Shown in pieces: positions 9,101 to 33,177 of a DNA stretch of 45,978 bases; within the stretch, counting starts at the first letter, position 1, and each line of letters starts with the position of its first letter. The notes below the pieces were generated by a model that was not told the DNA's origin, searched no databases, and was given only the letters and a program-made list of their open reading frames with translations. The translations under genes and the position numbers were made by a program. The stretch is from Candidatus Micrarchaeota archaeon (GTDB taxonomy: Archaea; Micrarchaeota; Micrarchaeia; Anstonellales; Bilamarchaeaceae), in NCBI GenBank assembly GCA_043816005.1, contig JBDRIM010000061.1, positions 1 through 45,978 on the forward strand. The letters run 5' to 3'.

Positions 9101-9252
9101 GAAGCGGCTGTAGTGAAAGAGAAGTTCGAGAATTTTTATCCCAATTTGAAAAAATGGAGAAAATGATGGGGATGTTCAAGAAAAACCGTGGCTTCAGAAA
9201 GAAAATGGAAAAGATGATGTCGGGAAAGCAAGGCTTTCCCGGAATGAAGTGA
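6115..9252 (+). CDS. srp54: Signal recognition particle protein SRP54, intein-containing
   Basis: N domain DLQRVLISSDV; GLYGSGK/TTSCAKLA P-loop split by an intein; DTDRPAAQEQL, DSAGR, TKMDGSGKGGG; M domain MINSMT..RIARIAKGSG. Likely start is ATG 6115. Confidence 0.96.
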   Translation: MDLGKKLREALAKLTNRPYVDEDDVKALIKDLQRVLISSDVSVKLVFALSKRIEERALKSKKIEALTLKEHVTKIVYEELVSLMGQSYTTRLDKHKILMCGLYGSGKCVHKDTIIPLASGNVKTIKEIYETYLVRGEQQIDNGYLIKCHSNGPEVYAFDKETLKISKKRATALWKLKKTSKLLKVSLDNGNAHSIIVTPEHPFFVLDNGEIKQVRADQLRSNECIATAAILEFDGTEQNFYKEIIQKFDDCTIENNEMASQITKELLARFGTLRNAYEKIRPKSGYSIFTTNLKNGRMHIDVIKKMEFYGISLMTLERIMIKGSKAGRRSGSVSASITLPTNLDEELAEFLGYVWGDGYIYHNYVEVTNNDSEILSRLDYLSKRLFGTNGKIKIDKRNNVKKFTICSRLLVMFLNRIFGAPIGKKSKIIKIPELVLKSKKTAIRGFVRGYFDTDGYVEKNSRHVEFCSASKNLIEQLRIVLLRFGMFSNISQKTINQTEYYRLFLKSDDVIKFGKEISSILPRKRIRFEELSKISGQGPGCHQIIPVGRLIQRIREKYGFSIGEIQKYVSSYGIYEANGVITRSSLRNFLAALEKPHKNWLGLIKKIKSGSTYGKVIEENREWATASLFRLEQQGHISKQNGGFALTPAGHQILEDAEEDNYTGIDKLKSLAFSDVCWLEIKSIEIVDDEEWVYDLTVDDLHTFVANGIIVHNTTSCAKLAHFYKTKGLSVGLVAADTDRPAAQEQLEQLAKQVGAAYYTTKGEKSPTKIVKDALKKAKEDVIIVDSAGRSGLDGGLVEELREVAEVLKPEECYLVISADIGQVAGKQATEFNAAVPLSGVFVTKMDGSGKGGGALSSVAASNAKISFVGIGEKPNDIEVYNSERFVGRLLGVPDIGALMEKIKEISETSDLKKIETDELTIESFYEQLKAAKKLGPLGNVLGMLGAADVPKEMVQQSEEKLKKFECMINSMTKQEKKDASVLKNNAGRIARIAKGSGCSEREVREFLSQFEKMEKMMGMFKKNRGFRKKMEKMMSGKQGFPGMK
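6436..8253 (+). mobile_element. Intein (606 aa) with LAGLIDADG homing endonuclease, in the SRP54 P-loop
   Basis: Begins CVHKDT after GSGK; block B TPEHPF; LAEFLGYVWGDG and FVRGYFDTDG; ends VYDLTV..HTFVANGIIVHN followed by +1 Thr. Confidence 0.95.
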
Positions 9253-9310
9253 ACGGTTCGCCGTTCACAACATGGGTGGAAAAGGTCTGCAGGGAATGCC
9301 AGGAATCTAA
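9250..9310 (+). repeat. Hairpin followed by a relic alternative SRP54 3' end
   Basis: TGAACGG-TTCG-CCGTTCA (9250-9267). Then 9272-9310 encodes MGGKGLQGMPGI*, versus the real end MSGKQGFPGMK*. Confidence 0.7.
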
Positions 9311-9349
9311 ATAACAACTTTTATAAACATTTTTTGACACAGTTATGGC

Positions 9350-10348
9350 ATGGCTCATGCTACTAAATCTTTATATTCAGCAGTAAATGATAGACGATCG
9401 GTTAGAAATTTTCAAGGTAGATCAATAGAACCAGATAAAGTAGCAGTGATGATAGAAGCTGCACAAAGAGCACCATTTTCAGAAACACCATACCGAATTG
9501 TAGCTGTTAAGAATAGAGAAAGAAAACTAGCATTGTGTAATGCAGCACTTGGACAACCATGGGTCAAAAGGGCAGATGTTGATTTTGTAGTCTTAGCTAC
9601 TAGCTCTGGTGTACCTGGCGTAATGAGCACTGCTGCAGCAACTGCTTATATGGATATTGCAGCCCACGCATTGGGATTAGGAAGTGTTTGGGTTGGGGCA
9701 TTTTATCCTGATCAAGTTGGTAGAATTGTTGATGCAGAAAAAAATGAAATTCCAGTTGCAATTCTATGTTGTGGTTATCCCGATCCAAGAGCAAGAGAGA
9801 TGAAAACTCCAAGAAGAAATCTTAGTGATCTTATTGCAGTCATTGATTCTTCAGACCAGATAAAAAGATATCAAGGTATACCAGATCAATCACTTGGAAG
9901 TATGCCATTTTTCGATGTTGTTGCTAGACGAAGAGCAGCAACATTATTACAGAGAACAGAAATTGAACCAGGTAAAATACATAGAATTTTAGAAGTAGCA
10001 AATAGAGCACCATCAGCAGGAAATTTACAAGCTTATGACCTTCTTTTATTGGATCCTGCATGGGAAAGTGAAGGATTAATGGACAATATAACAGATGGGA
10101 CAAGTGCTGGTGCAGAATTAATTATTTTTGCAAACAGAATGAGATCTGCTGGAAAATATGGGGAACGAGGAGCGTATCTTTATTGTTTACAAGACGCAAC
10201 AATTGCAGCAGCTTATGCTGAACTTGCTGCTCAGGATGTTGGACTTAGTACAAGATGGAATACTGGATTTGATGCAGATATGCTTATGGATATTGTTCAA
10301 CCAAGCCAACACCACTTACCAATTGCTATTTTATCAATTAGCAAATGA
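9350..10348 (+). CDS. Tandem two-domain nitroreductase-family protein
   Basis: RRSVRNF..AAQRAP..GLGSVWVG in domain 1; RRRA..ANRAPSAGNLQ..GLSTRW in domain 2. Confidence 0.9.
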   Translation: MAHATKSLYSAVNDRRSVRNFQGRSIEPDKVAVMIEAAQRAPFSETPYRIVAVKNRERKLALCNAALGQPWVKRADVDFVVLATSSGVPGVMSTAAATAYMDIAAHALGLGSVWVGAFYPDQVGRIVDAEKNEIPVAILCCGYPDPRAREMKTPRRNLSDLIAVIDSSDQIKRYQGIPDQSLGSMPFFDVVARRRAATLLQRTEIEPGKIHRILEVANRAPSAGNLQAYDLLLLDPAWESEGLMDNITDGTSAGAELIIFANRMRSAGKYGERGAYLYCLQDATIAAAYAELAAQDVGLSTRWNTGFDADMLMDIVQPSQHHLPIAILSISK

Positions 10349-10375
10349 TTTTATACACAATTTACCATAATATTG

Positions 10376-10689
10376 ATGAGTGAGGGGTAGATAGCCAACG
10401 TTTTTTAGTAATAAAAAATGAGGAAGTTCTGCCCTCTATGAGGATAACTGAAGTGAACCTTTGTTCATTACAAGCCGACCTAGTCGGCTCTGGCTTTAAG
10501 GGCTAGAGAGTGCTACAGAAACGATACCCTTCGGGGATGCAACGCGTACTCTTTTATCCGATGACGGAGCAAGGCCTTTGTGCCGCGTTCTAAAATTCGC
10601 AAGAATTTTGGAAACTTTTGGACGAGTAATCGACCAATTGTAAGTCAAATGCTATCAAATACAAAAGGCAGACTATTCCCCTCACTCGC
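10376..10689 (+). ncRNA. rnpB: RNase P RNA
   Basis: P1 GAGTGAGGGG/CCCCTCACTC; P2 GATAGC/GCTATC; CR-I GAGGAAGTTCTGCC pairing with CR-V ACAAAAGGCAGAC; also ACAGAAAC and GAGCAAG conserved elements. Confidence 0.93.
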
Positions 10690-10733
10690 ACCTTTTTAGG
10701 AAACAGATGCGTCCAAAAACTTGTTAGTTAAAA

Positions 10734-11666
10734 TCATCTAAACGGCCTTGTATTTCTCCTAAGTGGTTTCATCCCAGAAAGAGAATTGAGAGAATCTTCA
10801 ATTGGTTCAAGTTCTTTTGGATCCATAACAGCGCACATATCAGCTTCAATCAGAACAGCAGGATATGCAAAATTTTCACTGAAAGCTGAGAGACTACAGA
10901 TGATAGATGCCACAGTATCTATTTCTGTTGATGTTGTTTCAATTCGAAGCGGAAGATCAAATTTTGATGGTTTAACATAGAAAACCGAAATGTCACGTTC
11001 TTTATCAGAATACGGCATTGTATTTGTCCGTTCTAATTCTCCAAGCAAAAAATTACAAAAAATGCCGTCAGAACAATTAAGTCCGAATTCTTTTGTAAGT
11101 TTTTTAGAACGTGAATCTTTTATCACACCAATTAACATACAGTTTCCTTTTGAAAGATCATATAATTTTGTATAAAGTGTGAGCACTTCAGTATAGACCA
11201 CGTTAAGCTCGCTTTCTTCTGGTGGACGATCAGAGGGTAATGGAAGAAGAGAACCATCCATCAACAAAACTTGCGGAGAAAATTTTTCTAAACAGGAGAT
11301 GGCACATTGTAATTCCTCTTTCAATCTGATTAATGAACGAAAAACTAATGCTTCATGTTCATCTAAAGAACTTTTCATAAAAATTTCTGATTTTGGATTT
11401 TTTTCTGGCCAATATGAACAGGATTTAAGAGTGGAATTAGAATAAATAAAATTTACACCAACCGCCCTTACTACGACGATATCAGCACCATGCATCCTAT
11501 GTGCAAGAAGCCCGCCATCAACTGCACAAACAGAAAGATCAATTTTGGTTGTGTTAACTGGATATACCAAAGAGGAATTAGAGATTTTGATTTGTTTTGT
11601 TTTGTTTTGGAGTAAATTGTAGCTTTCTTTAATTTCTTTTGCAAGTGCACCAATCCGTTCTCTCAT
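10734..11666 (-). CDS. nurA: NurA nuclease (double-strand break repair)
   Basis: AVDGG, LLMDGSL, GVIKDS and C-terminal YPAVLIEAD..A motifs. Confidence 0.88.
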   Translation of the reverse strand: MRERIGALAKEIKESYNLLQNKTKQIKISNSSLVYPVNTTKIDLSVCAVDGGLLAHRMHGADIVVVRAVGVNFIYSNSTLKSCSYWPEKNPKSEIFMKSSLDEHEALVFRSLIRLKEELQCAISCLEKFSPQVLLMDGSLLPLPSDRPPEESELNVVYTEVLTLYTKLYDLSKGNCMLIGVIKDSRSKKLTKEFGLNCSDGIFCNFLLGELERTNTMPYSDKERDISVFYVKPSKFDLPLRIETTSTEIDTVASIICSLSAFSENFAYPAVLIEADMCAVMDPKELEPIEDSLNSLSGMKPLRRNTRPFR

Positions 11667-11882
11667 ACAACAGAATAGGAAGTTGTATAATTAAATTATT
11701 CCTGTAAATAACAAAAACAAAATTAAAAAAATCGAAGAAATCTGGACTTAAGACAAACAGATGTTCAGATCCCGAATATCTAATAAAAACCGCCCCTCTG
11801 GTTTTTGGTTGATGTTTTTGTTAATTTTTGTTTCGGTTGCCAGAAGAAAAACATATTTTAAGTCTGTGTAAGATAGAATAAT

Positions 11883-12395
11883 ATGATCCTTTCTGATAGA
11901 GACATAAAGAGAATGCTCAGGAACAACGAAATAGAAATAACCCCGCTTGAAAAGGACCAGATTGGGCCGGCAAGCATAGACCTTACACTCGGCGAAGAAT
12001 GGTATTTTTTTAAAAAATCAATTCGTGGAAAAGTTGATTTATCAAAAACGGGTTTTGAGAAAGCGTTTGATAGAAAAAATGCCAAAACAATAACACTGAA
12101 ACCAGGTGAAATGTGTCTTGGAAAAACAATTGAAAAGATAAAATTGCCTGCTCATATTATGGGAAAATTAGAAGGGAGAAGTAGATTTGCACGAATGGGA
12201 CTTATCATACACACAACAAGTGCGTTAGTACAGCCAGGAAGCAACAACCGCCAGGTTTTAGAGATTGTAAATTTGGCGCCATTTCCAATAGTTTTACATG
12301 CTGGGATGAGAGTTTCGCAGGTTGTTCTTGAGTTGCTTAAAAGTCCAACAACAAAACCTTATGCAAAATTCGGGGAAATAGCTAAGAATCAGTGA
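11883..12395 (+). CDS. dcd: dCTP deaminase
   Basis: ILSDRDI, QIGPASIDLTL, GRSRFARMGL, LEIVN, RVSQ. Confidence 0.93.
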   Translation: MILSDRDIKRMLRNNEIEITPLEKDQIGPASIDLTLGEEWYFFKKSIRGKVDLSKTGFEKAFDRKNAKTITLKPGEMCLGKTIEKIKLPAHIMGKLEGRSRFARMGLIIHTTSALVQPGSNNRQVLEIVNLAPFPIVLHAGMRVSQVVLELLKSPTTKPYAKFGEIAKNQ

Positions 12396-12399
12396 AATT

Positions 12400-13005
12400 A
12401 TGAAATTGAGTATAGTTCATATTACAGTAATAACTGTGTTGGTACTCCTAGTTCTTGCTGTTCTAAGTTACAAACCAATGTTTGACAATCCAAAAACCGT
12501 CTTTATAGAGGAACCAATTCAGAAAAACAAGGAGATACAATTGTTACCTGGTCAACAGTATATTTATTCATATATGCTAAATGACAGTCAAATAAACATG
12601 ACATATAATGTCTTATACGATCCAACTTGTGTAAGAATACGATTATTGGAAAGTAAAGATATATCCGAGAGTTGTTTGGATAGATGGGGGATGGATAGCC
12701 AGGGATATAATTCCACCTTAGAGAATGATAAGATGATACTTTTCAAGCCATGGATGCTTGCTTTGGAAGAAGGCTGGCGATGGAAAGTTGCTATGTATTT
12801 GGACTATAATGGAGTACTGCATCATATTTCAGAATCCAACTATCGGGTGATTAGAACAGATGAATACATGAATAGAACTGTATTTATTGTTGAGATAACT
12901 TCGCAGGGTGGAGTAAAAGAATATCAGTGGATTGATACAGAAAAGAGAATAGCTTTGAAAATAGCTGGCACTGGATATGAAGTTATTTTAATCGAACAAA
13001 GTTAG
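12400..13005 (+). CDS. Membrane-anchored or exported hypothetical protein
   Basis: N-terminal hydrophobic helix followed by a polar, beta-like domain. Confidence 0.7.
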   Translation: MKLSIVHITVITVLVLLVLAVLSYKPMFDNPKTVFIEEPIQKNKEIQLLPGQQYIYSYMLNDSQINMTYNVLYDPTCVRIRLLESKDISESCLDRWGMDSQGYNSTLENDKMILFKPWMLALEEGWRWKVAMYLDYNGVLHHISESNYRVIRTDEYMNRTVFIVEITSQGGVKEYQWIDTEKRIALKIAGTGYEVILIEQS

Positions 13006-13166
13006 ACAACTTTAAGCGGAATCACGTTCTGTTCAAGCTCCTGCTCTGCAACTTGAACAAATGATGCCGAATCGCTGCTAACTTTTATCAACGGTGGGGC
13101 ACCCATTGAAAGTTGAAGGGCACGTGCACCAATTAATCTTGCGATTTCATATTTAGTCAGTTCCAT
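13002..13166 (-). CDS. rpoK: RNA polymerase subunit Rpo6/K (not in the ORF track)
   Basis: Manual translation MELTKYEIARLIGARALQLSMGAPPLIKVSSDSASFVQVAEQELEQNVIPLKVV*; GGTGA RBS upstream. Confidence 0.95.
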   Translation of the reverse strand: MELTKYEIARLIGARALQLSMGAPPLIKVSSDSASFVQVAEQELEQNVIPLKVV

Positions 13167-13201
13167 AGTTAAAGTCACCAAAATGCGTGGGATATTATAG
13201 T

Positions 13202-14389
13202 TTACAAAACAATATAAACATTGCTTTTTTTAGCAAGAGTAAGTGCAGTCTCGCCACCAGCAAAATTAAAGGCCTTGGCAATACCAGAAACAATCTTTAT
13301 TCTCATCCCTGTCTTAATCTCACTACCCCTACCATCAAATAGATACACTACACCTTCATTTCCGATTTCATCATTAATAATAATCCTCATCAAAGATGCT
13401 TTTTGTTTTTTTGTTTTTTGATATTCCATTGTTTCTACGTGTTTTACAATAAGCATATCAGTATTGATATTACGCATGCCAGATTTGATTTTGGTTATAT
13501 TTGTGATTTTCAATTCTTTGAACGTTCTTCTAGCCATTTTGAATGCTTGAAGGATTTCGCGTCTGGCCTCATTCACCATGTGCTCCATTTCTTGCTTCAT
13601 GATAGACTCGTCACCGCCAGAAAGCATCATGGTTTCATATGCTTTTTTGAAGAAGGTATCTGGAAGATGAGTGATTTCTTCTCTTTCTTTGAGTTCCTCC
13701 ATTTCGTTTGATTCAAGAGTTGCGATTTCTGCTGATACATTGATAAGTTCAGTTTTTTTACCTACTTCACTCAGTTCACCTGATATTTCATCCCCTATAT
13801 TTACCTCAGTTGTAAGTATACGCTCTTCAGGCCTAACGATGATTGGTTTTGATTGAGAAAGAGTTGGAACACTGCCGATTTGGTCAAGATCTGACATCAC
13901 TTCAAGATAGCTTGTCAGAAATTCTTGCATAACTTTGCGGCCAGCTTCCTCGGTCTTTTTTTTGCTGCCATATTGCTGGTGTGCCTTGAGATAAATCTTT
14001 TCTATAGTTGGCATCATCTTGCTTTTTGCAACTTCTGCCCTTTCCTTACCAAGACGCTTTTCAAAAATCTGAGTGATAGGTTTGAGCATCTTTTCTTTTG
14101 TTTCGGTTGAGATCTCTTCCATTTTATCTTCATTAGATTTTTCACTTTCAGATGAGAATATTTTGGCAAACGACATCAGTTCTGGTTCTGTTTGTTTTTT
14201 CTTCTCAAGATATTGCTGTGCAAGCACTCTTACGGATGGATCTTTATCATAACTAAGTTCTACCAAAGCAAAAACTGCTGCAGGGTCATTCACTTCACCT
14301 AAAGATTTGGCTGCGCGCTTTCTGACTTCTGGTTTTTCATCGAATGTGAGGGAAACAAGTTTGTTAATATTTGCAGTAACCGAGTCCAT
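13202..14389 (-). CDS. HEAT-repeat protein with probable C-terminal OB-fold
   Basis: HEAT repeats DEKPEVRKRAAKSLGE and DKDPSVRVLA. C-terminus IINDEIGNEGVVYLFD..IKTGMRIKI resembles RPA/SSB OB folds. Confidence 0.65.
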   Translation of the reverse strand: MDSVTANINKLVSLTFDEKPEVRKRAAKSLGEVNDPAAVFALVELSYDKDPSVRVLAQQYLEKKKQTEPELMSFAKIFSSESEKSNEDKMEEISTETKEKMLKPITQIFEKRLGKERAEVAKSKMMPTIEKIYLKAHQQYGSKKKTEEAGRKVMQEFLTSYLEVMSDLDQIGSVPTLSQSKPIIVRPEERILTTEVNIGDEISGELSEVGKKTELINVSAEIATLESNEMEELKEREEITHLPDTFFKKAYETMMLSGGDESIMKQEMEHMVNEARREILQAFKMARRTFKELKITNITKIKSGMRNINTDMLIVKHVETMEYQKTKKQKASLMRIIINDEIGNEGVVYLFDGRGSEIKTGMRIKIVSGIAKAFNFAGGETALTLAKKSNVYIVL

Positions 14390-14418
14390 GACGATACCCT
14401 ATTTTAATCCATGTTAAA

Positions 14419-15489
14419 CTATTTAATGATTGTTTCTATTCCATCTAAGCACTTTTCAATCCAACTCATTTCAAAATTGCCCATATGTGCTATCCTAAGA
14501 CCATTGTCTTGATAAACTCCTCTAGCACCGACGATTTTTATTTCGTAGTCAGATACTAATTTTGATTTGATCAATTTTGCCTGTTCGGGAGTATTACATA
14601 CGAAACCAGTAACAGTATTTGATTCAAAACCGTTTTCTGCAATGATTTTGAAGCCCATTTCGGTTAGACGTTTTCGCGTATATAATGCAGCATCATTATG
14701 CCGTTTTACGGTGGCATGCAAACCACCATTTCTATCAAGAATATCAAATGCTTTTTGCAGTGCCCAAAACAAAGTAATTGCCGGCGTATTTGGAGTCTGC
14801 TGGTCTTTTTCATATCTTTTCTTGTGCCTTTTCAGATCCATATAGTACGAGGGTGTGTTTGTTCGTTTAGAAAAAACTTCAACTGCTTCTTGACTTAAAC
14901 CTAGAAGTGCCATTCCAGGGGGGGCACCAATGCCTTTTTGACTTCCTGTGACAAAACCATCAACATGAAATTCTTTCATATTAAACTCAGTGCCTGGCCA
15001 GGCTGATATACCATCGATTATGGTTAGCATTCCTTTTGATTTTGCATACTTGCAAATTTCTTTTATTTGATTTTTTACACCGTAACCAGTCTCGTTGTAG
15101 ACCATTGCTAGAACTTGGGCTTTGCTATCATCAATATGTTGTTTTGCTCTTTCAAGATTCCATCCTTTTCCACCATCAAGTTGATGTGGTATGGTAGTCG
15201 AATATATGCTAAGTGTAGTAACAAGATGATTGCCAAACTCTCCATTTGGAAAACTAACTGTTTTTTCTGATTTTTCACATAAATTTAATGCTAAAGTTTC
15301 TAGACCTAAGGCACCAGATCCAGTAATTATATAGGATTCTTGGGAGTGGAGATATTTTTTCAACCTTTCAACAAGATCTCCGTAGAGTTTTGTAAAATCA
15401 CTGCTTCTGTGAGTTATCATTTCTTTTGTTTGTGCTTTTGAAATTTCATCCAAAAGAGGTACCGGACCTGGAGCTAAAAGTATTCCCAT
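14419..15489 (-). CDS. Class V PLP aminotransferase (serine-pyruvate/alanine-glyoxylate family)
   Basis: PGPV, HRS, NETG, DGIS, GSQKG.GAPPG, TPNTP, RIAHMG. ATG 15489 follows GGTGA. Confidence 0.92.
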   Translation of the reverse strand: MGILLAPGPVPLLDEISKAQTKEMITHRSSDFTKLYGDLVERLKKYLHSQESYIITGSGALGLETLALNLCEKSEKTVSFPNGEFGNHLVTTLSIYSTTIPHQLDGGKGWNLERAKQHIDDSKAQVLAMVYNETGYGVKNQIKEICKYAKSKGMLTIIDGISAWPGTEFNMKEFHVDGFVTGSQKGIGAPPGMALLGLSQEAVEVFSKRTNTPSYYMDLKRHKKRYEKDQQTPNTPAITLFWALQKAFDILDRNGGLHATVKRHNDAALYTRKRLTEMGFKIIAENGFESNTVTGFVCNTPEQAKLIKSKLVSDYEIKIVGARGVYQDNGLRIAHMGNFEMSWIEKCLDGIETIIK

Positions 15490-15610
15490 AATTTCACCAA
15501 ATAGTAAATTCAATTTGGAAAGGAAAATTATAAAGCTATGGCATTTTTGAGCTAGATAGTTAAAAACAATTGTATATATGATTTAGAATTAGAAAAAATG
15601 GTGAATTTTT

Positions 15611-15922: not shown

Positions 15923-15925
15923 CAC

Positions 15926-16720: not shown

Positions 16721-16789
16721 AATTTCACTGTGATAACATATGTTTAAAAGCTATCGGAAACTGTTACGGCAATTGCCAGGGGAATTGGT

Positions 16790-16889
16790 TTAACGAGTAA
16801 TGAGTTCGTCTTCTTTTTTCCATCAGTTTGAACTGCGGTTCAAATCTGGCAAAAATTATTCATACACCACTTCGTCTTCTTTTTTCCAT
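16790..16889 (-). repeat. Duplicated cupin 3' end with an intervening hairpin
   Basis: TTCGTCTTCTTTTTTCCAT at 16805-16823 and 16871-16889. Hairpin CAG-TTTGAAC-TGCG-GTTCAAA-T-CTG at 16824-16848. Confidence 0.9.
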
Positions 16890-17218
16890 GCTGGATCTAC
16901 AATAACTAAGAAAATAAGGTCGGTATTTCCTGTGTTTTTTATTTTTTGAGAATGCCCTGGTGGAACGTAGATGGCTTGACCAGCATAAACTTCTTTTGTT
17001 TCTCGTTCTATATACATTAGCCCTTCACCTTGAAGAATGTAGTAAACTTCAGATGTTTTAAGTTTATGATTAAATGTTGTATCACCAGGTTTGACAATTG
17101 CGTGTGCAAGACTATAACGAAGATCTAGATCATCTTTCAGTGGGTTGAATAGTTCCTTTAATTTGCAGTTATCTCCGGCAGTAATTTCCAAACAGTCTTT
17201 TAGATCTCTGATGAACAT
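16856..17218 (-). CDS. Cupin domain protein
   Basis: H..KTSEVYYILQGEG and IYVPPG..QKIKNTG cupin motifs. Confidence 0.9.
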   Translation of the reverse strand: MFIRDLKDCLEITAGDNCKLKELFNPLKDDLDLRYSLAHAIVKPGDTTFNHKLKTSEVYYILQGEGLMYIERETKEVYAGQAIYVPPGHSQKIKNTGNTDLIFLVIVDPAWKKEDEVVYE

Positions 17219-17315: not shown

Positions 17316-17430
17316 TGCGACCGCCGGGAATTGAACCCGGCCCGCGAGATTGGCAATCTCGAATCATACCGTTGCACGCCGTTGGCGGGCAAAAAATGGC
17401 CGCCAGGCCATAGCTATAGACTACGGTCGC
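17316..17430 (-). tRNA. tRNA-Gly(GCC) with a ~44-nt insertion or intron in the D-loop
   Basis: Acceptor GCGACCG/CGGTCGC+A; anticodon arm CGAGA-TTGCCAA-TCTCG; T arm CCGGG-TTCAATT-CCCGG; D arm GTCT..CGGTA-TGAT interrupted at ~17372-17415. CCA not encoded. Confidence 0.9.
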
Positions 17431-18706: not shown

Positions 18707-18714
18707 CTGATTAT

Positions 18715-25208: not shown

Positions 25209-25241
25209 AATCATTAAAAACTATGCATAGAATAATGATAT

Positions 25242-25589: not shown

Positions 25590-25593
25590 TACT

Positions 25594-25941: not shown

Positions 25942-25943
25942 TT

Positions 25944-27050
25944 ATGCAACTTTGTCAAATATGCAATGGTGCTAATGGTTCTACTTTTGAAGCAGGCCAG
26001 TGTTATATTTGTGAAGAAAAGGCAATGAAGACAGATGAGATGATAACAACTGCAATTAGATTTTTAAAAGATGAAAATGCAACAAATTTTTCCATTTCAA
26101 CAATTATACCAAAGGACTGGCAAAATCGAGAGGAGATGGTCTGGGATAGAAAACTAAGTAAAGCAGAGAGCATCAAAAACATCCTAAATAGAAAAATAGT
26201 TAGTGCAATTAATGCAACAGGGTTGATTTATGATATAGATGGGGATTTTAGAGTGGTTTTCAATTATTATGAAGGAAAAATAGAATTGCAAAAAAATAAT
26301 ATGTTTATTTTTGGAAGATACAAAAAAATTAGTGCTGGGCTTTCGCAGAGTAGGTGGAGATGTCCGAAATGTGGAGGGGAAGGAACAAATTGTAATAATT
26401 GTTCTGGAAAAGGCAAATGCTATGAATCAGTGGAAGAACGAATTGGTGAACCGATAAAAGAAGCTGCACAAGCTAAAGATTATGTTATGCATGCATCAGG
26501 AAGAGAAGATGTTGATGCAACAAATACTGCAGGGCGGGCATTTGTATTTGAGATTAAAGAACCGTCTGAAAGAAAACTTAATCTTGTTGAACTTACGAAA
26601 ATTATTGGCAAAAGCAACGAAGTTGAAGTTTGTGATCTCCAAGTAGTAAGGAGAAAATTTATTGAGATGGTTACTGAATCTCATTTTGATAAAACATATG
26701 ACGCAGAGATTGAATTTGGTAGAGAGATAACTGAAAATGATGAGAGAAAAATCCTTGAACTTGCAGGAGAGACACTGCTTCAACAAACACCAACTAGAGT
26801 TGCACACAGGAGAGCAAATTTAGTTAGACATAGAAAAGTAAAAACAATTGAAGTCAAAAACAGAGATAAAAATAAGGCAACAATAATCGTGAAAGCAGAG
26901 GCAGGAACTTACATAAAAGAGTTGATTTCAGGGGACAATGGAAGAACCAATCCAAGTATTTCTAAACTCCTTGGAACAAGTGCTGTTTGTAAAAAATTGG
27001 AAGTAACAAAAATAGAAGACGGATTTTTGGATTTTTGTTTAGCGAAGTAG
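25944..27050 (+). CDS. pus10: tRNA pseudouridine(54/55) synthase Pus10
   Basis: GRYKK..QSRW, HASGREDVDA, QQTPTRVAHRR, AGTYIKELISGDNGRTNPS. Confidence 0.95.
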   Translation: MQLCQICNGANGSTFEAGQCYICEEKAMKTDEMITTAIRFLKDENATNFSISTIIPKDWQNREEMVWDRKLSKAESIKNILNRKIVSAINATGLIYDIDGDFRVVFNYYEGKIELQKNNMFIFGRYKKISAGLSQSRWRCPKCGGEGTNCNNCSGKGKCYESVEERIGEPIKEAAQAKDYVMHASGREDVDATNTAGRAFVFEIKEPSERKLNLVELTKIIGKSNEVEVCDLQVVRRKFIEMVTESHFDKTYDAEIEFGREITENDERKILELAGETLLQQTPTRVAHRRANLVRHRKVKTIEVKNRDKNKATIIVKAEAGTYIKELISGDNGRTNPSISKLLGTSAVCKKLEVTKIEDGFLDFCLAK

Positions 27051-27716
27051 ACGTTTTTGAACCCCATCGCCTGTTAATTCTCGCAATGCATCATTTGCAA
27101 TCCATTTTGCGGATTTTGATTCTTTTTTGCTAATTTTTTGTGCGCAAAAAATGGCGGCCCTATTTAAGTTCTTGTTTCTTTTACCAATTTGTCTTAATGC
27201 CCAATTTACTGCCTTTCTAACGAAATTCCTCTCATCAAATGAATACTTTTCTATTAGTGGAAAAAATACTTTAAATTTGCTGTCTGACGCTTTTTTATCA
27301 TGGACTGCCAAAGCAGCCATTAAAGCAAAACCAGTTCTCCTAACAAATTCTTCATCTCTTGCTGTCCATTCTAATGCTTTTCTATGAGCAATTTTGGTCT
27401 TGCTAAATAGGTTCATACAAACCTGATCACAAACATCCCACGAATCAAAATCTTTCACCCAGTGTTCCATCTGTTTTTCAGTAAGTTTTTTTGGATCTGC
27501 AACTAGACCTGCCAAAATTCTTGCTTCGTGGATCTCAGAATCCCAAAGTTCTTGGGCTAGTTCATGGTTTTTACCGATTTCCTTTCCAAGTTTACGCAAA
27601 ATTGGCATAGATACTCCGAGAGTATTTTTAGAACTAATACCAAAACGAACCATACCTTCAACATTTTTCGGATTGGACGCTGCACGAAGTTTTTTGATAA
27701 TTGTTTGATAGTCCAT
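27039..27716 (-). CDS. DNA alkylation repair protein (AlkD-like)
   Basis: LAQELW..HEARILA, DSWDVCDQ, DERNFVRKAVNWALRQIGKR. Confidence 0.9.
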   Translation of the reverse strand: MDYQTIIKKLRAASNPKNVEGMVRFGISSKNTLGVSMPILRKLGKEIGKNHELAQELWDSEIHEARILAGLVADPKKLTEKQMEHWVKDFDSWDVCDQVCMNLFSKTKIAHRKALEWTARDEEFVRRTGFALMAALAVHDKKASDSKFKVFFPLIEKYSFDERNFVRKAVNWALRQIGKRNKNLNRAAIFCAQKISKKESKSAKWIANDALRELTGDGVQKRLLR

Positions 27717-27717
27717 A

Positions 27718-28392
27718 CTAGAAGGTTTTAGCACCATATTGTTTCATGTATCCCTGGTATTTTTCATAAATTTTATCAGTAACATAAATTTTACCATCGA
27801 TTGTTTTACCCTTAAGATGAGTGAAGATATTGGAAATGGTTTCAATTGAATGGACTGGGACCGAGGTTTCATCGCTAAATTCTTTTAGTGCACTTTCTCT
27901 TTTGCCGATTTCCATTCTATCAACTGCAATAACAATGCCGACAACATTTGCACCGAGTGCTTTTTGAAGTTTTTCTATTGCTTCAAACTTTGTACCGCCA
28001 GTTGTCATAACATCGTCGATAATAACAATCCTCTGGCCAGTGTCCATATTCTGACTACCTACAAAAATACTGTTTGCATCTGCTCCATGAATCTTTTTTT
28101 CTTTTCTGTCAAAAAGCCATTTTTTGTTTGAGCCAGAATTGTTTAGTGCAAGAGTAGTTGAAATTGCAAGTGGAATTGCCTTGTATGCAGGACCAAAAAT
28201 AACGTCGAAATCATTTTTGAAAACTTCTGTTATTTTGCTTGCATAATATCTTCCAAGTTCAGCTGAAACTGAACCGCTACTGAGAACCCCCATATCTATG
28301 AAATAAGGGGATGAACGCCCACTTTTCAGAGTAAATTCACCAAATCTGATTGCATTATTTTTAGCCAGAAATTCTATAAATGAGGTATTCAA
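27718..28392 (-). CDS. pyrE: Orotate phosphoribosyltransferase
   Basis: FGEFTLKSGRSSPYF, FGPAYKAIP, RKEKK.HG, IIDDVMTTG. Confidence 0.95.
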   Translation of the reverse strand: MNTSFIEFLAKNNAIRFGEFTLKSGRSSPYFIDMGVLSSGSVSAELGRYYASKITEVFKNDFDVIFGPAYKAIPLAISTTLALNNSGSNKKWLFDRKEKKIHGADANSIFVGSQNMDTGQRIVIIDDVMTTGGTKFEAIEKLQKALGANVVGIVIAVDRMEIGKRESALKEFSDETSVPVHSIETISNIFTHLKGKTIDGKIYVTDKIYEKYQGYMKQYGAKTF

Positions 28393-28433
28393 AAAACCAC
28401 CGAAAGGACTAAACAGGTAAGATATTTATTGTA

Positions 28434-29015
28434 TTAGTTTTTTTCCGCAATTTTCAATAATTCAAGTGCATGTTGTAGATTAAGTTCAGCAATTTCTTTG
28501 GGCAATCTTTTCAAGTCAGAACTATTAAGAGCGAGTTCAAGTTTTTGTTTTAATTCTCCTCGGGCCCTTGCCATTTCTTGCAAATTCACATCCCAAAGCA
28601 TAATAAGAACGGGATCTTTTGGCAAAATTCCATTGATTGCTTGGAGAATATGATCTTCGGAGATAAAACCAGCTGTAACCCTGTCTTTCAGAATCTGTTC
28701 TGCAATATGAAGTGCACCACAATTTTGATGTTCTTCGCAACTAAAAGAAGGATCAAGAGCAGCCACGCAATCAAAACCACCGCATTTATTGAATAGTCGT
28801 CCAACGGTAGTTTTCTCGCCATCAATAGTAATCTCGAGGTTTTCTTTTGTAGTAGAACATATAACCGTAAGAAAATGACCGAGAATATCTGGGGTGAGTT
28901 CGAATTTACCTTCTACCCCCGCAGTTTTGAAAACTAATAAGGAATAATGATGGATTAATGTCGTGTTCTTATCAAGCAGATTTAGGTCACTACGTACTGA
29001 ATATCCTTCTTCCAT
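28434..29015 (-). CDS. Hypothetical protein (Cys/His cluster)
   Basis: 193-aa ORF containing KCGGFDC..SCEEHQNC; no family recognised. Confidence 0.6.
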   Translation of the reverse strand: MEEGYSVRSDLNLLDKNTTLIHHYSLLVFKTAGVEGKFELTPDILGHFLTVICSTTKENLEITIDGEKTTVGRLFNKCGGFDCVAALDPSFSCEEHQNCGALHIAEQILKDRVTAGFISEDHILQAINGILPKDPVLIMLWDVNLQEMARARGELKQKLELALNSSDLKRLPKEIAELNLQHALELLKIAEKN

Positions 29016-29064
29016 GATTTATTTTAACAATTAGAATTTATAATATTACCAAAGATAGTTTGGT

Positions 29065-29190
29065 ATGGCAGAGTTATGTTTTTTCTGTAAAACTCCAAAA
29101 GAGTTTGTCATTAGGATCTATGGAAATCAAGGATACGCACCTCAAGGAGAAGGATTCATTTGTACTGATTGCCTGAAGAGTAGGATGTGA
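29065..29190 (+). CDS. Small C4 zinc-finger protein (41 aa, not in the ORF track)
   Basis: MAELCFFCKTPKEFVIRIYGNQGYAPQGEGFICTDCLKSRM*, with two CxxC pairs. Confidence 0.65.
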   Translation: MAELCFFCKTPKEFVIRIYGNQGYAPQGEGFICTDCLKSRM

Positions 29191-30429
29191 TCATTTTTCT
29201 TTATACACCCAATATGTTTTATCCTCTTTTGCGCCCATCTGTCTTTTTGCATCATCTAATTTTTTCTCCTCGGAACCACCGAGTTTTATCCATTCAACAC
29301 CAGATTGAAAGAAATAATTGAACAAATTGAAGATAGAAATTGCACTGAATCCTTCTGCTCGTGAAACTGTTTTTGGCCCATTTTTTATTTCAGGTAGATT
29401 TGGGATTGTTTCGTATGGATCAAGACCTAGAAGTTCACCCAAAACATATTCATTGTCTCTTAATGTTATTGAAGTATACAATCCTAAAGTATCAAAACCC
29501 CCATTTTTTGATCTTCGGATTCCTTCCCCCACAAAAATTGAAACTGGCACATCATTTAGATACCCGATGGATGCGCGTATATCAGGAAGTTTTAGTATTT
29601 TCGGATGTACAACTCCGAAATGATCTTCTGCCATAGAACCAACAGGATCAACAAGACGAGAAAAATGCTCTCTTATGATTTTTTGACCAATTCCAGATGC
29701 GTGTTCGCACTCCTTTGGAAAGATTTGTTGCATTCTGAAATCGATTTGATTTCTCTTCAGAAAATTCCTGAATCTTTGAACTGCCATTCGAGATTTCCTT
29801 CGATGTTCTTTATTTTCTGTATTTTCAAGATCAAGAACCTCGAATTCAGTCGGTAGAATTGGTCTTAATATTCCTGGGATCCATAAAGTCGAATGATAAA
29901 ATGTTTCATCTTCTTGAGGTGCTCTTGGATTCCACGGATTAGATTCAAATGTTACTGGATGGAATCCGTGACCAACGAGTAGATTTTTGCCATATTCATT
30001 AAGGAATCGAACATATACACCCTTACAAGGAATGGTTCCGTCTTGGAAAATTTTTTCTATGAACGGTGCGATTCTTTCGAGTGCCCGAAGAGTAGGAGCT
30101 ATAAGCATCAAATAACTATCATCTTCGCTAGTGCCTTCTTTTCTGAAATATCCGATTCCAAAAACTGCATCATCAACAGTACTGCAAGTGGTAGCTTCGT
30201 GATAATATAACCCCAAAGGTGCGATTCTGCTTACCCCTCTTGGATTATAGCCATTTGCATAAAGTGCAATGGCTGCAGGACTCATTCCAAAATTTCCCTC
30301 TTTCCTATCAAGTTGCCAGGTACCCATATCAGGATCTAAAATCTTAACTTGTTTGAATTTAGCTAAAAGTTTTTGTTCGACTATCTCTCGTTTTGTTCTA
30401 CCAATTACAGATAATGTGTGACTATTCAT
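29191..30429 (-). CDS. Hypothetical protein, possibly GNAT-fold (DUF2156/Fem-like)
   Basis: 412-aa ORF. C-terminal WIKLGGSEEKKLDDAKRQMG resembles the 'DLGG....L..FK..G' motif of Fem/DUF2156 proteins. Confidence 0.5.
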   Translation of the reverse strand: MNSHTLSVIGRTKREIVEQKLLAKFKQVKILDPDMGTWQLDRKEGNFGMSPAAIALYANGYNPRGVSRIAPLGLYYHEATTCSTVDDAVFGIGYFRKEGTSEDDSYLMLIAPTLRALERIAPFIEKIFQDGTIPCKGVYVRFLNEYGKNLLVGHGFHPVTFESNPWNPRAPQEDETFYHSTLWIPGILRPILPTEFEVLDLENTENKEHRRKSRMAVQRFRNFLKRNQIDFRMQQIFPKECEHASGIGQKIIREHFSRLVDPVGSMAEDHFGVVHPKILKLPDIRASIGYLNDVPVSIFVGEGIRRSKNGGFDTLGLYTSITLRDNEYVLGELLGLDPYETIPNLPEIKNGPKTVSRAEGFSAISIFNLFNYFFQSGVEWIKLGGSEEKKLDDAKRQMGAKEDKTYWVYKEK

Positions 30430-30523
30430 GATATTTTATGGTGCTTAACTTAGATATAAAACTTTAAATTAAAATTTTGACAAAAAGATAGTTTTTTTAA
30501 GTTTTAATGATGTGATGTAAAAT

Positions 30524-31525
30524 ATGCGAAATAGAAAAGTAAAAATAGATAAAAAAGATAGACGCATAATTTATGAATTGGAGAATAATTGTAGACGAAG
30601 TCTTAATAAGATAGCAAAAAAAGTCGGTTTGAGTAAACAAGCTTTGCACTATCGAATCGAGCGATTAGTGCGTGAAGGTGCTATTATTCAATTTATAGCA
30701 AATATTGATTATTCAAAATTAGGGTATGTAAATCATGAAGTTTGGTTGCAATTTAATGAGATAACAAAAGAACAAAAAGAGGAATTTATCAATTTTCTCA
30801 AAAATCACCCAAACATCAGGTGGTTGGCCAGTTGCGGCGGAAAGTTTGATTTGGCAATGGCAATAATGGCTAAGGATGTTATCTTTTTTTCTGAGATTTT
30901 AAACCAAATTCTTGGGAGATATAATGGTTATGTCCAAAACCATTTCATAACAATATCCAAGGGAGTATGGACTTACCCGAGAAGTTATTTGATAAATGAT
31001 AAAGAAAACAGAAATCAAGGACATTTGCTTTTTGGTGGTGCCTTGAAAACACAACACTTAGATGAAAAAGAACTGAAAATCCTCCACCTACTTTCAAAGA
31101 ATGCAAAATTATCTACTGTAGAAATAGCACAAAAAGTTGGCTTAACACCAATAACTATCAGAACAAAGATAAGGCAATTTGAAAAAGAAGGCATAATTGT
31201 TGGGTATAAGGCGATTATTCAGCCCGCAGCAATTGGAATTGAAAATTATGAAGTTCTAATAACTACTCAAAATGTTTCTGAAGATAAGATGAAAGGATTT
31301 CAGACCTATTGTCAACTAAATCCATACATAACATTTTTGCTTAAGATAGTTGGAAGATGGGATTTGAATATATCATTTGATGCTGAAAATGGAGAGCATT
31401 TCCAGCAAATGATGATTGAAATAAGAAGCAGATTTGGGTCCATAATAAGAGATTATGAATATGTGCCGATCTTATGGGTGTATAAATTTGATTTTGCTCC
31501 TGTGAATGAATGCAAAGGCAATTAA
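30524..31525 (+). CDS. Tandem (double) Lrp/AsnC transcriptional regulator
   Basis: Two HTH+RAM units: IDKKDRRII..N.R.SL..IAKKVGLS and LDEKELKIL..NAKLS..EIAQKVG. Confidence 0.92.
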   Translation: MRNRKVKIDKKDRRIIYELENNCRRSLNKIAKKVGLSKQALHYRIERLVREGAIIQFIANIDYSKLGYVNHEVWLQFNEITKEQKEEFINFLKNHPNIRWLASCGGKFDLAMAIMAKDVIFFSEILNQILGRYNGYVQNHFITISKGVWTYPRSYLINDKENRNQGHLLFGGALKTQHLDEKELKILHLLSKNAKLSTVEIAQKVGLTPITIRTKIRQFEKEGIIVGYKAIIQPAAIGIENYEVLITTQNVSEDKMKGFQTYCQLNPYITFLLKIVGRWDLNISFDAENGEHFQQMMIEIRSRFGSIIRDYEYVPILWVYKFDFAPVNECKGN

Positions 31526-31548
31526 AGTTTAGGCGTGAATTTTAATAG

Positions 31549-31941
31549 ATGGAAACTGTAGAAATAACTAAGGCACTTGAGATCATCAAAAAAAAGCAAG
31601 GTGTTTTAGCAGTTTATATTTTCGGATCTGTAGCAACAGGCAGACAGAACAAAAACTCAGATATTGATATTTGCGTAATACCTGAAAATATGGATGACAG
31701 CCTTGACATTGTTGTTGATGCTAGTTCTAAACTTCCAAAAAATTTTGATATTGTTAATTTTTACCGCTTACCAGTCCAGATAAGACATAGAGTTTTCAAG
31801 GAGGGTAGGTTGTTATATGAAAAAGACCAAAATAGGGTTTCAGTAGTTATATTTAGGACGATCAAAGAGTATCTTGATATGAAACCAGGACTTGATAGGA
31901 TATACGATGCAATTTTAACTGGGGTGCGGCAACATGGATAA
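31549..31941 (+). CDS. MNT minimal nucleotidyltransferase (MntA-like antitoxin)
   Basis: YIFGSVATG..SDIDI motif; overlaps the start of the HEPN gene. Confidence 0.92.
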   Translation: METVEITKALEIIKKKQGVLAVYIFGSVATGRQNKNSDIDICVIPENMDDSLDIVVDASSKLPKNFDIVNFYRLPVQIRHRVFKEGRLLYEKDQNRVSVVIFRTIKEYLDMKPGLDRIYDAILTGVRQHG

Positions 31942-32338
31942 GGATCGAATATCAAGTATAATAGCGAGTATCGAAAAGAACATGGCAGAAGTAGAAGAAC
32001 GATTTAAACTAGAAGAAGCATTTGGAAATAAAGTAGTATTTGATGCTGGGTGTATGTCACTTTTTCAGGTAATAAACAGGTCCATAGATCTTGCAGAAGA
32101 AACGATTGCAGTAAAACGCTTTGTAGTTCCAGGAAGTTATTCTGACTCTTTTGAGATTCTAAAGTAAGCAAAGGTAATATCCGAAAGAACATCAGAAGGT
32201 ATGAAAAAAATGGTACAATACAGAAACATAATATCCCATGAATACTACAACATAACACCTAAAGATGTGAAGGAAATACTAAAGAAAATCCACTTTGTTG
32301 ATGAATTTTTAGAAGAAATAAAAAAATCAGTCAGATAA
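31934..32338 (+). pseudogene. HEPN/DUF86 (HepT-like) RNase toxin with a premature in-frame stop
   Basis: TAA at 32165-32167. The same frame continues AKVISERTSEGMKKMVQYRNIISHEYY..SVR* to 32338 and contains the R-x4-H motif. Confidence 0.88.
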
Positions 32339-32344
32339 TATTTT

Positions 32345-33118
32345 CTACTTACTCTTCGCACCTTCCCTAACAGCCTTAACCATCTCTTTCATCTTAGAAA
32401 CAGAACATTCTTTCTCAAACGCAGTACCAACCTGAATAATATCTGCTCCAGCCTGGATTATAGCTTTGGCCTGATCTGGTGTTTTGATTCCTCCTGCAAC
32501 AATATACGGAATAGAAATACAAGATTTAACAGTTGCAACCATCTCCAAAGGAATTGGTCCTGTTTCAGGATTGCTTCCAGTATCTGTTATGAAGAATCTA
32601 AATCCCATACATTGTGCAGCCATACCAAATGCAGCTGCTATTTTTGGCTTGGTTCGTGGAATGCGTTTTGCATCTCCAACCCAACCAACTGTCCCCCCTG
32701 GTTCAACAACAACATAAGCAGTTGGAAGTGGTTCAATTTTATAGTGTCTTACCATTGGTGCTGCAAGCATCTGAGCTTCGCTTATCCAATAAGTATTTCT
32801 TGAATTAAGCATGGACATAAAATAGACTGCATCTGCGTATTTTGTAAGAGTGCCAATGTTACCTGGAAAAAGTATTACTGGTTTTGATACATTTTCCTTG
32901 ATCGTTCTTGTTATAGTGTCTAGATCCTCACCCTGCACCCCCGTACTTCCACCAATGAGTATAACATCTGCATCAGCTTCATCTGCATTTTTGGCTGTTT
33001 TTACTGCATCCTGAGGGCTTTTGTAATCTAAAGGGTCAATAAGAGCAAAAAGAAGGCCTTTTTTCTTCTCAAGCTCTTCGTTGATGTATTTTTCTGTTTT
33101 ACCCATTTGAATAGTCAT
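32345..33118 (-). CDS. Geranylgeranylglyceryl phosphate synthase (group II)
   Basis: LIDP, IGGS, PVILFPG, ADA..FMSMLNSRNTYWI, YVVVEPG, AGGIK, GAD.I.VGT. Confidence 0.93.
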   Translation of the reverse strand: MTIQMGKTEKYINEELEKKKGLLFALIDPLDYKSPQDAVKTAKNADEADADVILIGGSTGVQGEDLDTITRTIKENVSKPVILFPGNIGTLTKYADAVYFMSMLNSRNTYWISEAQMLAAPMVRHYKIEPLPTAYVVVEPGGTVGWVGDAKRIPRTKPKIAAAFGMAAQCMGFRFFITDTGSNPETGPIPLEMVATVKSCISIPYIVAGGIKTPDQAKAIIQAGADIIQVGTAFEKECSVSKMKEMVKAVREGAKSK

Positions 33119-33177
33119 AAAAAATCACCATTTTTTATTATTGAACGAATCGTCGTTCAATGTCATAAATATCACCA
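33114..33177 (-). repeat. Duplicated RBS+start of GGGPS around a perfect hairpin
   Basis: GTCATAAAAAATCACCA (33114-33130) and GTCATAAATATCACCA (33162-33177) flank ATTGAACGA-ATCG-TCGTTCAAT (33140-33161). Confidence 0.85.

Follow-up and report, generated by a model that had tools for sequence, protein, structure and literature searches.

Short hairpin inserts of Bilamarchaeaceae-like Micrarchaeota probably spread through recombination at short similar sequences and may lack a dedicated transposase

Hairpins at the SRP54, cupin and GGGPS genes are members of one insert family of Bilamarchaeaceae-like Micrarchaeota, whose units probably move by recombination between short similar sequences, perhaps with no dedicated transposase. 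The window – the whole stretch of DNA analysed – comprises 45,978 nt of contig JBDRIM010000061.1 (assembly GCA_043816005.1), with positions given on the forward strand; its genome, G000, is 86% complete, and relatives' genomes are denoted G023, G049, G016 etc. Family units are ~48-66 nt long and mostly contain two hairpins (twins) with 7-11 bp stems. The duplicated cores differ by family (CATG/ATG, GAC, GGTG), the target duplications span 2-21 nt, and the insert ends invert over 2-5 nt only. Units are located at gene starts, gene ends and in RNA genes, on both strands of genes, and also form head-to-tail (tandem) arrays and nest within one another.

The initial annotation proposed that the three genes share a layout, with a hairpin between a gene end and a displaced older copy of that end. 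This layout is present in the sequence, is real and genome-wide, and is not due to chance: G000 has 204 hairpins with stems of at least 9 (14-24 in shuffles), 79 twin hairpins (0-3) and 35 TGAAC-arm hairpins (0-2; n=5 shuffles throughout). Duplicated termini beside hairpins are likewise enriched: flanking repeats of at least 15 nt accompany 7 of 124 family hairpins, against a single one of 1104 control positions. Where a 3′ end is duplicated, the native end is in most cases the downstream copy, as its designation as the older copy implied. The sole control position with such a repeat also carries a GTGAAC hairpin. The core motif occurs in 51 of 80 family genomes, at 0-37 copies per genome among kin, and the orthologous site is empty in 22 of 47 clusters anchored in G023. 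As with MITE-type elements, the inserts are short, non-coding, and present or absent at orthologous sites with a target duplication. An assembly artefact of strain mixing is ruled out by an identical, independent contig that bridges the cupin site, recurrence in G023 at SRP54, and the bridged upstream junction at GGGPS.

The SRP54 locus contains:
6115..9252, plus strand: SRP54 gene with LAGLIDADG intein; the last 10 codons and stop come from the insert
9220..9274, plus strand: SRP54 twin-hairpin insert, 55 nt; ATG duplicated at 9217-9219 and 9272-9274
9221..9241, plus strand: hairpin 1, 9-bp stem, 3-nt loop; family arm coding GKQGFP
9249..9268, plus strand: hairpin 2, GTGAACGG arm, 4-nt loop; contains the new stop
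9272..9310, plus strand: displaced SRP54 tail MGGKGLQGMPGI-stop, the probable native end

The layouts first described were borne out, and the single hairpin drawn at SRP54 and GGGPS was not, both sites being twins (second hairpins at 9221-9241 and 33117-33138). Nor is the new SRP54 end, SGKQGFPGMK-stop, a foreign orthologue terminus as had been supposed; it is the first hairpin of the 55-nt twin insert, a stock family hairpin. The insert recurs in G023, where 52/56 nt are identical to the G000 copy while four-fold sites are 47% identical, and hairpin 2 shows a compensatory change between the two genomes. The insert is common to both and the relic tails differ; identity 5′ of the insert is flat at 0.74-0.84, with no co-converted tract, and the G023 target has little in common with the insert junction beyond ATG. 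Compared with insert-free tails, the G023 relic has six synonymous codon changes and one non-synonymous change (P<=0.02 under neutral decay). Only 2 of 99 genomes carry this allele, and, as far as the tree alone goes, a single gain plus a loss in G049 may account for it. Two metagenome matches to it are unrelated coding sequence.

The cupin locus contains:
16856..17218, minus strand: cupin gene, present end EDEVVYE-stop
16824..16889, minus strand: cupin unit, 66 nt; 19-nt repeat, VVYE-stop, short tail and single hairpin
16827..16844, no strand assigned: hairpin TTTGAAC, 7-bp stem, 4-nt loop
16790..16823, minus strand: relic end LITR-stop and second copy of the 19-nt repeat

The 19-nt direct repeat lies at 16871-16889 and 16805-16823 (minus strand), and both ends place the stop at the same codon. 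The expectation that the relic would resemble the end of a homologue was confirmed for both ends, which match natural types: xxYE-stop in Micrarchaeota homologues, and ELIL-stop, ELIIP-stop or ELIFD-stop in others. Because both ends are natural types, the cupin locus – alone among the three – looks like a true allele swap.

The GGGPS locus contains:
32345..33118, minus strand: GGGPS/PcrB-family gene; orthologues begin near the second ATG (33104-33106)
33116..33163, minus strand: twin unit, 48 nt, at the start codon; the second hairpin bears GGTGA and restores the ATG
33162..33176, minus strand: older ribosome site and ATG, remaining upstream of the unit

The two hairpins (33140-33161 and 33117-33138, minus strand) are accompanied by an 8-nt repeat, TTTATGAC, at 33162-33169 and 33114-33121 (minus strand). 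The new start had also been attributed to a foreign orthologue; it belongs to a stock 48-nt unit, near-identical copies of which lie at unrelated genes and, in other contigs, in tandem. The junction on the 33164 (upstream) side is bridged; cover at the 33116 junction reaches only 12-13 nt to one side.

Three further sites in the window carry inserts:
5872..5988, minus strand: thermosome leader insert, a ribosome-site-type twin that encloses another twin (5899-5944)
10449..10491, plus strand: RNase P RNA insert, 43-nt twin hairpin with TGAAC arm; relatives lack the insert
17372..17415, minus strand: tRNA-Gly(GCC) insert, 44 nt, at position 15/16 in the D-loop; gene at 17316-17430

Of two weaker cases raised initially, 5872-5988 proved to be a twin nested within a ribosome-site-type insert, and 42020-42180 was dismissed, having no stem of at least 7 and a best repeat of 7 nt. 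The RNase P RNA (~10380-10686) was recognised by likeness to relatives, with no Rfam match at gathering score, and its twin is as originally described; the tRNA-Gly insert is real and does not belong to the TGAAC family. The latter is intron-like, is common to a second tRNA-Gly and absent in G023, and forms 3/4 central bulge-helix-bulge pairs (by hand). In a tRNA-Ala, one twin constitutes the whole 52-nt intron, with the perfect central helix of a bulge-helix-bulge.

The junction and first arm of the inserts match their own targets far above chance, and the first arm often spells anew the terminal codons and stop of the host gene, or its ribosome site and start, with the previous end left in place. 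Among 125 isolated twins, 21 match at 8/12 nt or more where 2.5 would be expected (maximum 11 in 2000 permutations), and within one family 9 of 30 do so against 1.9 (maximum 7 in 5000 permutations), with two of these nine coming from one tandem array. At 10 of 11 non-cupin gene ends, chosen by hand and by eye, the new end and the relic specify identical peptides, and the codon differences in those ten are nine synonymous and none non-synonymous; counter-examples are the G016 GGGPS end, G000 C20:8093, and C80 (extra codon). One insert allele is present at the same codon of three paralogues that are 35-39% identical, its stems kept by compensatory change.

Six mid-gene inserts were sized by comparison with orthologues, and every one has a length of 48, 51 or 54 nt and contains no stop; two in MetRS genes, judged from their repeats, are also in frame and stop-free, unlike terminal units, which are of any length. 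A frame screen of 256 clusters in four genomes gave 14 with matches on both sides, among which no out-of-frame or stop-containing insert within a conserved coding region was found (0/14; G000 C60:37636 set aside). Mid-gene inserts are presumably translated rather than spliced, because they are always in frame, and spread without gene breakage, as envisaged in the initial annotation, is consistent with the data. An apparent chimeric gene at a G049 insert is an artefact of a variable N-terminus.

We consider the chances about even that these tiny hairpin modules integrate by single crossover at short identity and are then filtered by selection. The crossover would occur at 3-19 nt of identity between the insert's joined ends and the target, and the crossover stretch would consequently be duplicated on both sides of the insert. 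The travelling form may be a fragment or a circle, single-stranded and folded, that is released by excision between the unit's own repeats; host annealing or recombination would reinsert it where sequence resembles the junction. Insert junctions include ATG, GGTGA and TGA/TAA, so that in-register landing at a gene start or end would rebuild it; selection would purge inserts that fail to do so and leave mid-gene survivors in frame. Template switching could re-perfect the arms to give target-tuned alleles able to enter that site again in another species (SRP54) or in paralogues, and alleles may carry a captured gene end, as at cupin. The e14 element at icd and fungal mobile endonuclease ORFs likewise supply a substitute for part of the gene they enter, but are kilobase elements with their own nuclease or integrase.

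Several observations count against single crossover, including that no circle, free fragment or excision event of the inserts was observed. Spacer pairing with insert ends, at 3.16 versus 1.98 bp, speaks for the reading, but in several families the spacer is 1-3 nt long and makes no such pairs; the rule that the spacer always pairs with the joined ends holds for some families only. Predicted folds of circularised inserts are no more stable than linear ones, and the weak Y1 enrichment described below is a further point. Many inserts have just 2-4 nt in common with their target; homology alone would not suffice there, and these sites may be selected by an enzyme. More tentatively, the inserts may represent a novel class of selfish DNA, consisting of folded, single-stranded circles of ~50 nt that bring no enzyme of their own and in which the duplicated junction would be the attachment site and arms re-copied from the host would retarget the element, so that it homes into gene termini, paralogues and tRNAs (becoming new introns) and rewrites protein ends between species.

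It is rather unlikely that the units are instead non-autonomous elements moved in trans, as in REP/BIME or PATE, by an HUH/Y1-type or other transposase that binds the hairpin and cuts a short core, with gene ends rebuilt by selection alone. Their fixed geometry and short family-specific cores fit such a scheme, their arrangement in tandem arrays and nests recalls the BIME model (PMC3333891), and the dinucleotide cut at variable distance described for TnpAREP (PMC8266576) would account for a captured end at cupin. Y1 genes occur in 10/23 hairpin-rich and 7/41 poor genomes (Fisher p=0.037), a statistic that ignores kinship and treats kin as independent. However, the HUH/Y1 lead gave no partner: a search including a protein query found no Y1 transposase in G000 or G023, and eight hairpin-rich genomes have neither Y1 nor reverse transcriptase. 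Of 33 matches to Y1 loci 26 were fetched and 25 parsed, and these have their own GC-rich IS200-like ends, by eye unlike the TGAAC/AT-rich arms; no Y1 gene flanked by cognate repeats was found in G000, G023 or these 25 loci. Twins within the left end of four Y1 elements (G049, G069, G074, G086) appear to be targets, not cognate ends. GTAG/GTGG at the hairpin 5′ foot is absent among the twins listed, whose flanks are ATGG, GACC, GAGGT and similar, and the occurrence of one allele at a single codon in three paralogues calls for more than selection.

Searches for other enzymes gave IS110, GIY-YIG, serine recombinase and Cas1 each in 0/5 hairpin-rich genomes (the first, third and fourth also none in the 86%-complete G000), and tyrosine recombinases in 4/5. 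The reverse transcriptase of G000 is a frameshifted gene at C41, probably DGR-like, and such genes show no significant tie to hairpin load (9/23 rich, 9/41 poor genomes, p=0.16). No endonuclease gene lies inside the 48-66 nt units, and free LAGLIDADG genes elsewhere are not bracketed by twins. NucS was found in 0/81 family genomes and MutS in 0/5, so a looped heteroduplex would be tolerated; the patchy copy number in a uniformly NucS-lacking family suggests a missing factor. A restriction-site idea, from the resemblance of cores to CATG, GGWCC and CCWWGG, was dropped, with no strong avoidance in G000.

The earlier model amounts to homology-facilitated illegitimate recombination (HFIR) and is decidedly unlikely; in it, homologous recombination within the gene brings in linear foreign DNA, an illegitimate joint forms at the hairpin, and the terminus is swapped. 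HFIR with 3-10 nt joints is reported in bacteria (PMC6382021), and the two natural cupin ends with one stop codon position and the SRP54 insert common to two species with different relic tails would accord with it. Long one-sided homologous recombination is not needed, however: identity is not raised upstream of the SRP54 insert, the new SRP54 and GGGPS ends are stock hairpins, one allele is shared by paralogues with no more than 35-39% identity, and most copies carry no gene end. In-place building by replication template switching (fold-back copying and a switch to another hairpin copy), with no free mobile form, is improbable. Some first arms do copy local host sequence and have a perfect complement (G049 C6:296673, G000 C27:13980, C41:64887, C73:15208), and homogenisation of inverted-repeat arms by template switching is described (PMC8604942), but near-identical whole units lie at unrelated loci and in other organisms' contigs, and motif counts of 0-37 among kin imply transfer. 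Removal of inserts from the message by bulge-helix-bulge splicing, or skipping by ribosomes, with the relic end still used, is most improbable, for although the G023 SRP54 relic has a purifying-selection pattern, ATG on both flanks resembles matched take-off and landing codons, and the tRNA-Ala intron and splicing-endonuclease genes are present, mid-gene inserts stay in frame, inserts lie on both strands of genes, and a bulge-helix-bulge is formed in 0/20 registers at cupin and in 1/9, with weak flanks, at GGGPS, while the SRP54 ATG registers give at most 3/4 central pairs (by hand).

These inserts can be set beside several known repeats. REP/BIME with TnpAREP (RAYT) are similarly short, species-specific hairpins in pairs and tandem arrays, sometimes in frame in genes, and a single-strand circle intermediate is proposed in the portions of those reports used here (PMC3333891, PMC8266576, PMC6006769); the Micrarchaeota inserts lack the GTAG/GTGG foot, no REPtron-like gene was found for them, and they have short target duplications, target-matched arms and rebuilt gene ends. 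PATE (down to 52 bp) and SMR-A of Haloquadratum are also archaeal and transposase-free, and SMR-A insert into IS605-type terminal palindromes, as four twins do here; however, PATE palindromes resemble IS605 ends, whereas the Micrarchaeota arms differ from the resident IS200/IS605 ends, SMR-A have terminal inverted repeats and a length of ~110 bp, and both are described as making no target duplication (PMC3119063). Rickettsia RPE, Methanocaldococcus repeats and bacterial MITEs are palindromic and are found within RNA genes and, in frame, within conserved proteins, but are ~100-200 bp, mostly with terminal inverted repeats and TA ends, and the passages drawn on mention no re-spelled termini (PMC2229807). 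Mitochondrial GC clusters and double-hairpin elements are ~40-60 nt modules with conserved stems that merge, shuffle and are exchanged between species by recombination, with no assigned enzyme; they are organellar, GC42 has a fixed AG target, and the passages drawn on for them report no target-matched arms (PMC4478555, PMC2800124). Micrarchaeota twins resemble them in working, not sequence, keeping stems by compensatory change (SRP54 hairpin 2, the paralogue allele). MobA HomR likewise brings a differently spelled host copy, keeps the gene functional and inserts repeatedly at one site, but is described as a kilobase element with its own nuclease or integrase (bioRxiv 10.1101/2022.08.31.505936), whereas the unit here is ~50 nt and codes nothing.

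Accounts of RPEs, SMRs and mitochondrial hairpin elements, in the parts cited, leave the mode of spread without a settled answer, and the spread of enzyme-less repeats becomes directly testable here through empty sites, arms that match their targets, and recurrent insertion at one codon. The inserts would also account for start codons annotated in error and for tRNAs overlooked in DPANN genomes. If the reading is true, protein termini, leaders and tRNA introns would be rewritten in reduced archaeal genomes without killing genes.

The window corresponds to contig C61 in a 1.26 Mb, 86% complete genome (G000), and the genes concerned are SRP54 (with an intein), a cupin gene and a GGGPS/PcrB-family gene. 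All relatives that have a name belong to Micrarchaeota, several with Bilamarchaeum or Bilamarchaeaceae as their label, and family f1 is accordingly taken to be Bilamarchaeaceae-like. The initial annotation described TGAAC...GTTCA hairpins between a new gene end and a displaced older copy of that end (here termed a relic), and this layout is present at all three genes; independent contigs span the cupin site as well as one of the junctions at GGGPS, which argues against an assembly artefact. The hairpins are there, but they are not all single: second hairpins at SRP54 (9221-9241) and GGGPS (33117-33138) make these sites twins (inserts of two adjacent hairpins), and at 42020-42180, listed as a weaker case, there is no hairpin. 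Genome-wide, G000 contains 204 hairpins with stems of at least 9 bp and 79 twins, compared with 14-24 and 0-3 in five dinucleotide shuffles. The anticipated enrichment of repeats at hairpins was also seen, with direct repeats of at least 15 nt at 7 of 124 family hairpins versus 1 of 1104 control positions.

Comparison with related genomes, covering 1.19 Mb (G023) and 0.4 Mb apiece (G049, G069), indicates that twins are insertions. G000 has 214 hairpin clusters, 47 of them anchored on both sides in G023, for which automatic labelling gave 22 empty in G023, 18 shared (at least some of these being tRNA introns or hairpins that arose by chance in coding sequence) and 7 other; clean gaps at empty sites mostly measure 48-57 nt or roughly double. 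Twin families sort by the spacer between the hairpins, each with its own duplicated core, and 65 of 135 twins are unclassified.

Spacer families of twins and their duplicated cores
ACTGYC: core CATG/CAAG
GGWCC: core GAC
TTA: core GAGGTG
GCATGC: core AT

Twins nest in one another, form head-to-tail arrays, and are located within tRNA introns, within RNase P RNA and, in four IS200-like elements, inside the left end. In the IS200-like elements of the Bilamarchaeaceae-like family f1 (loci L185-L205), tnpA is immediately preceded by a GC-rich leader that forms a stem-loop and is conserved among them, and in those four the twins occupy this leader or the left end. Near-identical repeats of about 110 nt, each with a twin, flank a Fic-like gene (motif recognized by eye) at G000 C70:623-735 and 1935-2047 (L119), and a twin at G023 C9:323388-323432 repeats the last 12 nt of tRNA-Gly, resembling a miniature att site.

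The motif TGAACG-N5-6-CGTTCA has 25 copies in G000 and occurs in 51 of 80 family genomes at 0-37 copies each (reversed control, 0-2). In a draw of 301 genomes across the phylum, only two outside the family, both of the same order, have more than four copies. None of the claims depends on G136, an unpublished genome. A 20-base twin pattern searched against all species genomes gave nine matches: six in archaea, of which five bear the label Micrarchaeota, and three in bacteria, where the twin is absent. No published description of such elements in Micrarchaeota was found in a literature search that reached a minority of subscription papers, and 'repeat', 'palindrom' and 'intron' are absent from the main text of PMC8561730, which names the family.

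In all, 61 ORF ends lie close to an element, and an orthologue was available for 45 of them. Eleven non-cupin cases with a stop-bearing relic beyond the insert were picked by eye, cases and codon windows being author-chosen, and in ten the same peptide of 1-6 residues plus stop lies on either side of the insert, with nine synonymous and no non-synonymous codon differences; in the eleventh, native GVKIA-stop is now GVKIE-stop. Counter-examples also occur. The first arm matches its own downstream flank at 8 or more of 12 nt in 21 of 125 isolated twins (2.5 expected), and in 9 of 30 within one twin family (1.9 expected; two of the nine from an array). These unbiased tests agree with the hand-picked ends, and the pattern is general. 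One allele recurs in three paralogues that are 35-39% identical, found in G049, G069 and G086, each time at the same Phe-Glu-Pro-Leu position, with no further carrier among 91 genomes. As a separate observation, a large, clustered and expanded paralogue family, of about 530 aa or two split halves of about 260 aa, lies at:

G000 C54:32266-43045
G049 C6:71000-92500
G069 C3

At GGGPS, the 48-nt unit duplicates TTTATGAC. Its ribosome-site hairpin has copies at three unrelated loci, with 2-3 mismatches, and the unit is tandem in other contigs with different flanks; orthologues begin with M(I/Q/E)GK and lack MTIQ. The new start therefore derives from the element itself, not from an orthologue as had been supposed.

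The sequences show short duplicated cores, target-matched arms, arrays and same-site recurrence. We give about even odds to a mechanism in which a folded single-stranded intermediate would re-enter the chromosome by a single crossover at short identity, selection would retain insertions that rebuild a gene terminus, and arms would be tuned through template switching.

An HUH-like enzyme acting in trans is unlikely. Y1 (HUH single-strand) transposase, a lead from the initial annotation, was not found in the incomplete G000 and G023 genomes. It is present in 22 of 81 family genomes, with weak enrichment in hairpin-rich ones (p=0.037; kin not independent); the parsed loci are IS200-like elements with ends unlike twins. 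Reverse transcriptase has no significant association with hairpin richness, and eight rich genomes have neither enzyme. IS110, GIY-YIG, serine recombinase, Cas1 and MutS were each found in none of five incomplete genomes, tyrosine recombinase in four of five, and NucS in none of 81 incomplete family f1 genomes. An integrase-linked island at G000 C41:51000-55300 (L112) carries a reverse transcriptase with a frameshift, next to what is probably a target gene of the DGR type.

Uptake of foreign DNA by one-sided homologous recombination, as first proposed, is quite improbable, since identity upstream of the SRP54 insert is not raised. Twenty-eight of 30 SRP54 loci are insert-free, with a Gly-rich tail following MEKM(M/L) directly; the other two, in G000 and G023, have a 55-nt twin, and its first hairpin reads SGKQGFPGMK-stop. 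A related arm is also present elsewhere, and no third carrier was found among 99 genomes. The two inserts are identical at 52 of 56 nt, with one compensatory change, over a background of 47% identity at four-fold sites and median protein identity of about 74%. Their relics differ. Compared with the tails in two genomes that lack the insert, the G023 relic, MKGGIPGMGDMKMG plus stop, has six synonymous and one non-synonymous codon changes, a pattern with P<=0.02 under neutral decay, which argues that it was selected until recently or is still read. LAGLIDADG inteins lie in SRP54 (window 6115-9252) and a HerA-like ATPase (38089-41133), and the long SRP54 frame occurs only in G000 and G041 among 40 genus genomes. 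The cupin ends are closer to what was proposed: both allele-like types are natural, Micrarchaeota homologues ending in IIYE, KIYE or TVYE and others in ELIL, ELIIP or ELIFD, and either could be the native one. The 66-nt cupin unit has an exact 19-nt duplication, after which five codons differ and the stop position is the same; most simply, a hairpin carrying the end of one allele would have been inserted into a second allele at the 19 nt common to both.

Template switching in place as the sole process has a slim chance.

Splicing or bypass is very improbable: the sequences indicate that inserts in protein genes are not spliced. When 256 clusters from four genomes were screened for reading frame, 14 had protein matches on both sides. 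Five of these contain an insert of 48-54 nt, in every case in frame and free of stops, and there was no out-of-frame insert; LeuRS has an additional in-frame insert of 51 nt and MetRS probably two more. Strict bulge-helix-bulge (BHB) structure is present at the tRNA-Ala twin intron, and protein-gene junctions have scattered BHB matches at best (SRP54 scored by hand). At G000 C60:37560-37991 a twin seems to split a toprim-like frame, with no matched G023 homologue, out of frame; this may be a pseudogene. The canonical tRNA-Ala(TGC) intron at G000 C85:2146-2190 consists entirely of a 52-nt twin; its central helix is perfect, and G023 lacks an intron at this site. Many G000 tRNA genes have long multi-hairpin introns of shared modules, missed or miscalled by ARAGORN, for example:

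C22:27436-27576
C34:6386-6612
C40:1562-1693

A second tRNA-endonuclease-domain protein (C5:14421-14663, L103) accompanies the 391-aa enzyme on C64. There are four free-standing LAGLIDADG genes in G000, two of which extend into tRNA genes and one of which immediately precedes MetRS:

C64:76545-77219
C64:37237-37983
C27:15504-16478
C5:38248-38898

These tiny hairpin inserts are a real, lineage-wide family. In how they work they resemble REP elements, RPEs or the hairpin elements of mitochondria, although tests did not place them in any of these groups, and beyond them they add target-matched arms that rebuild gene termini.
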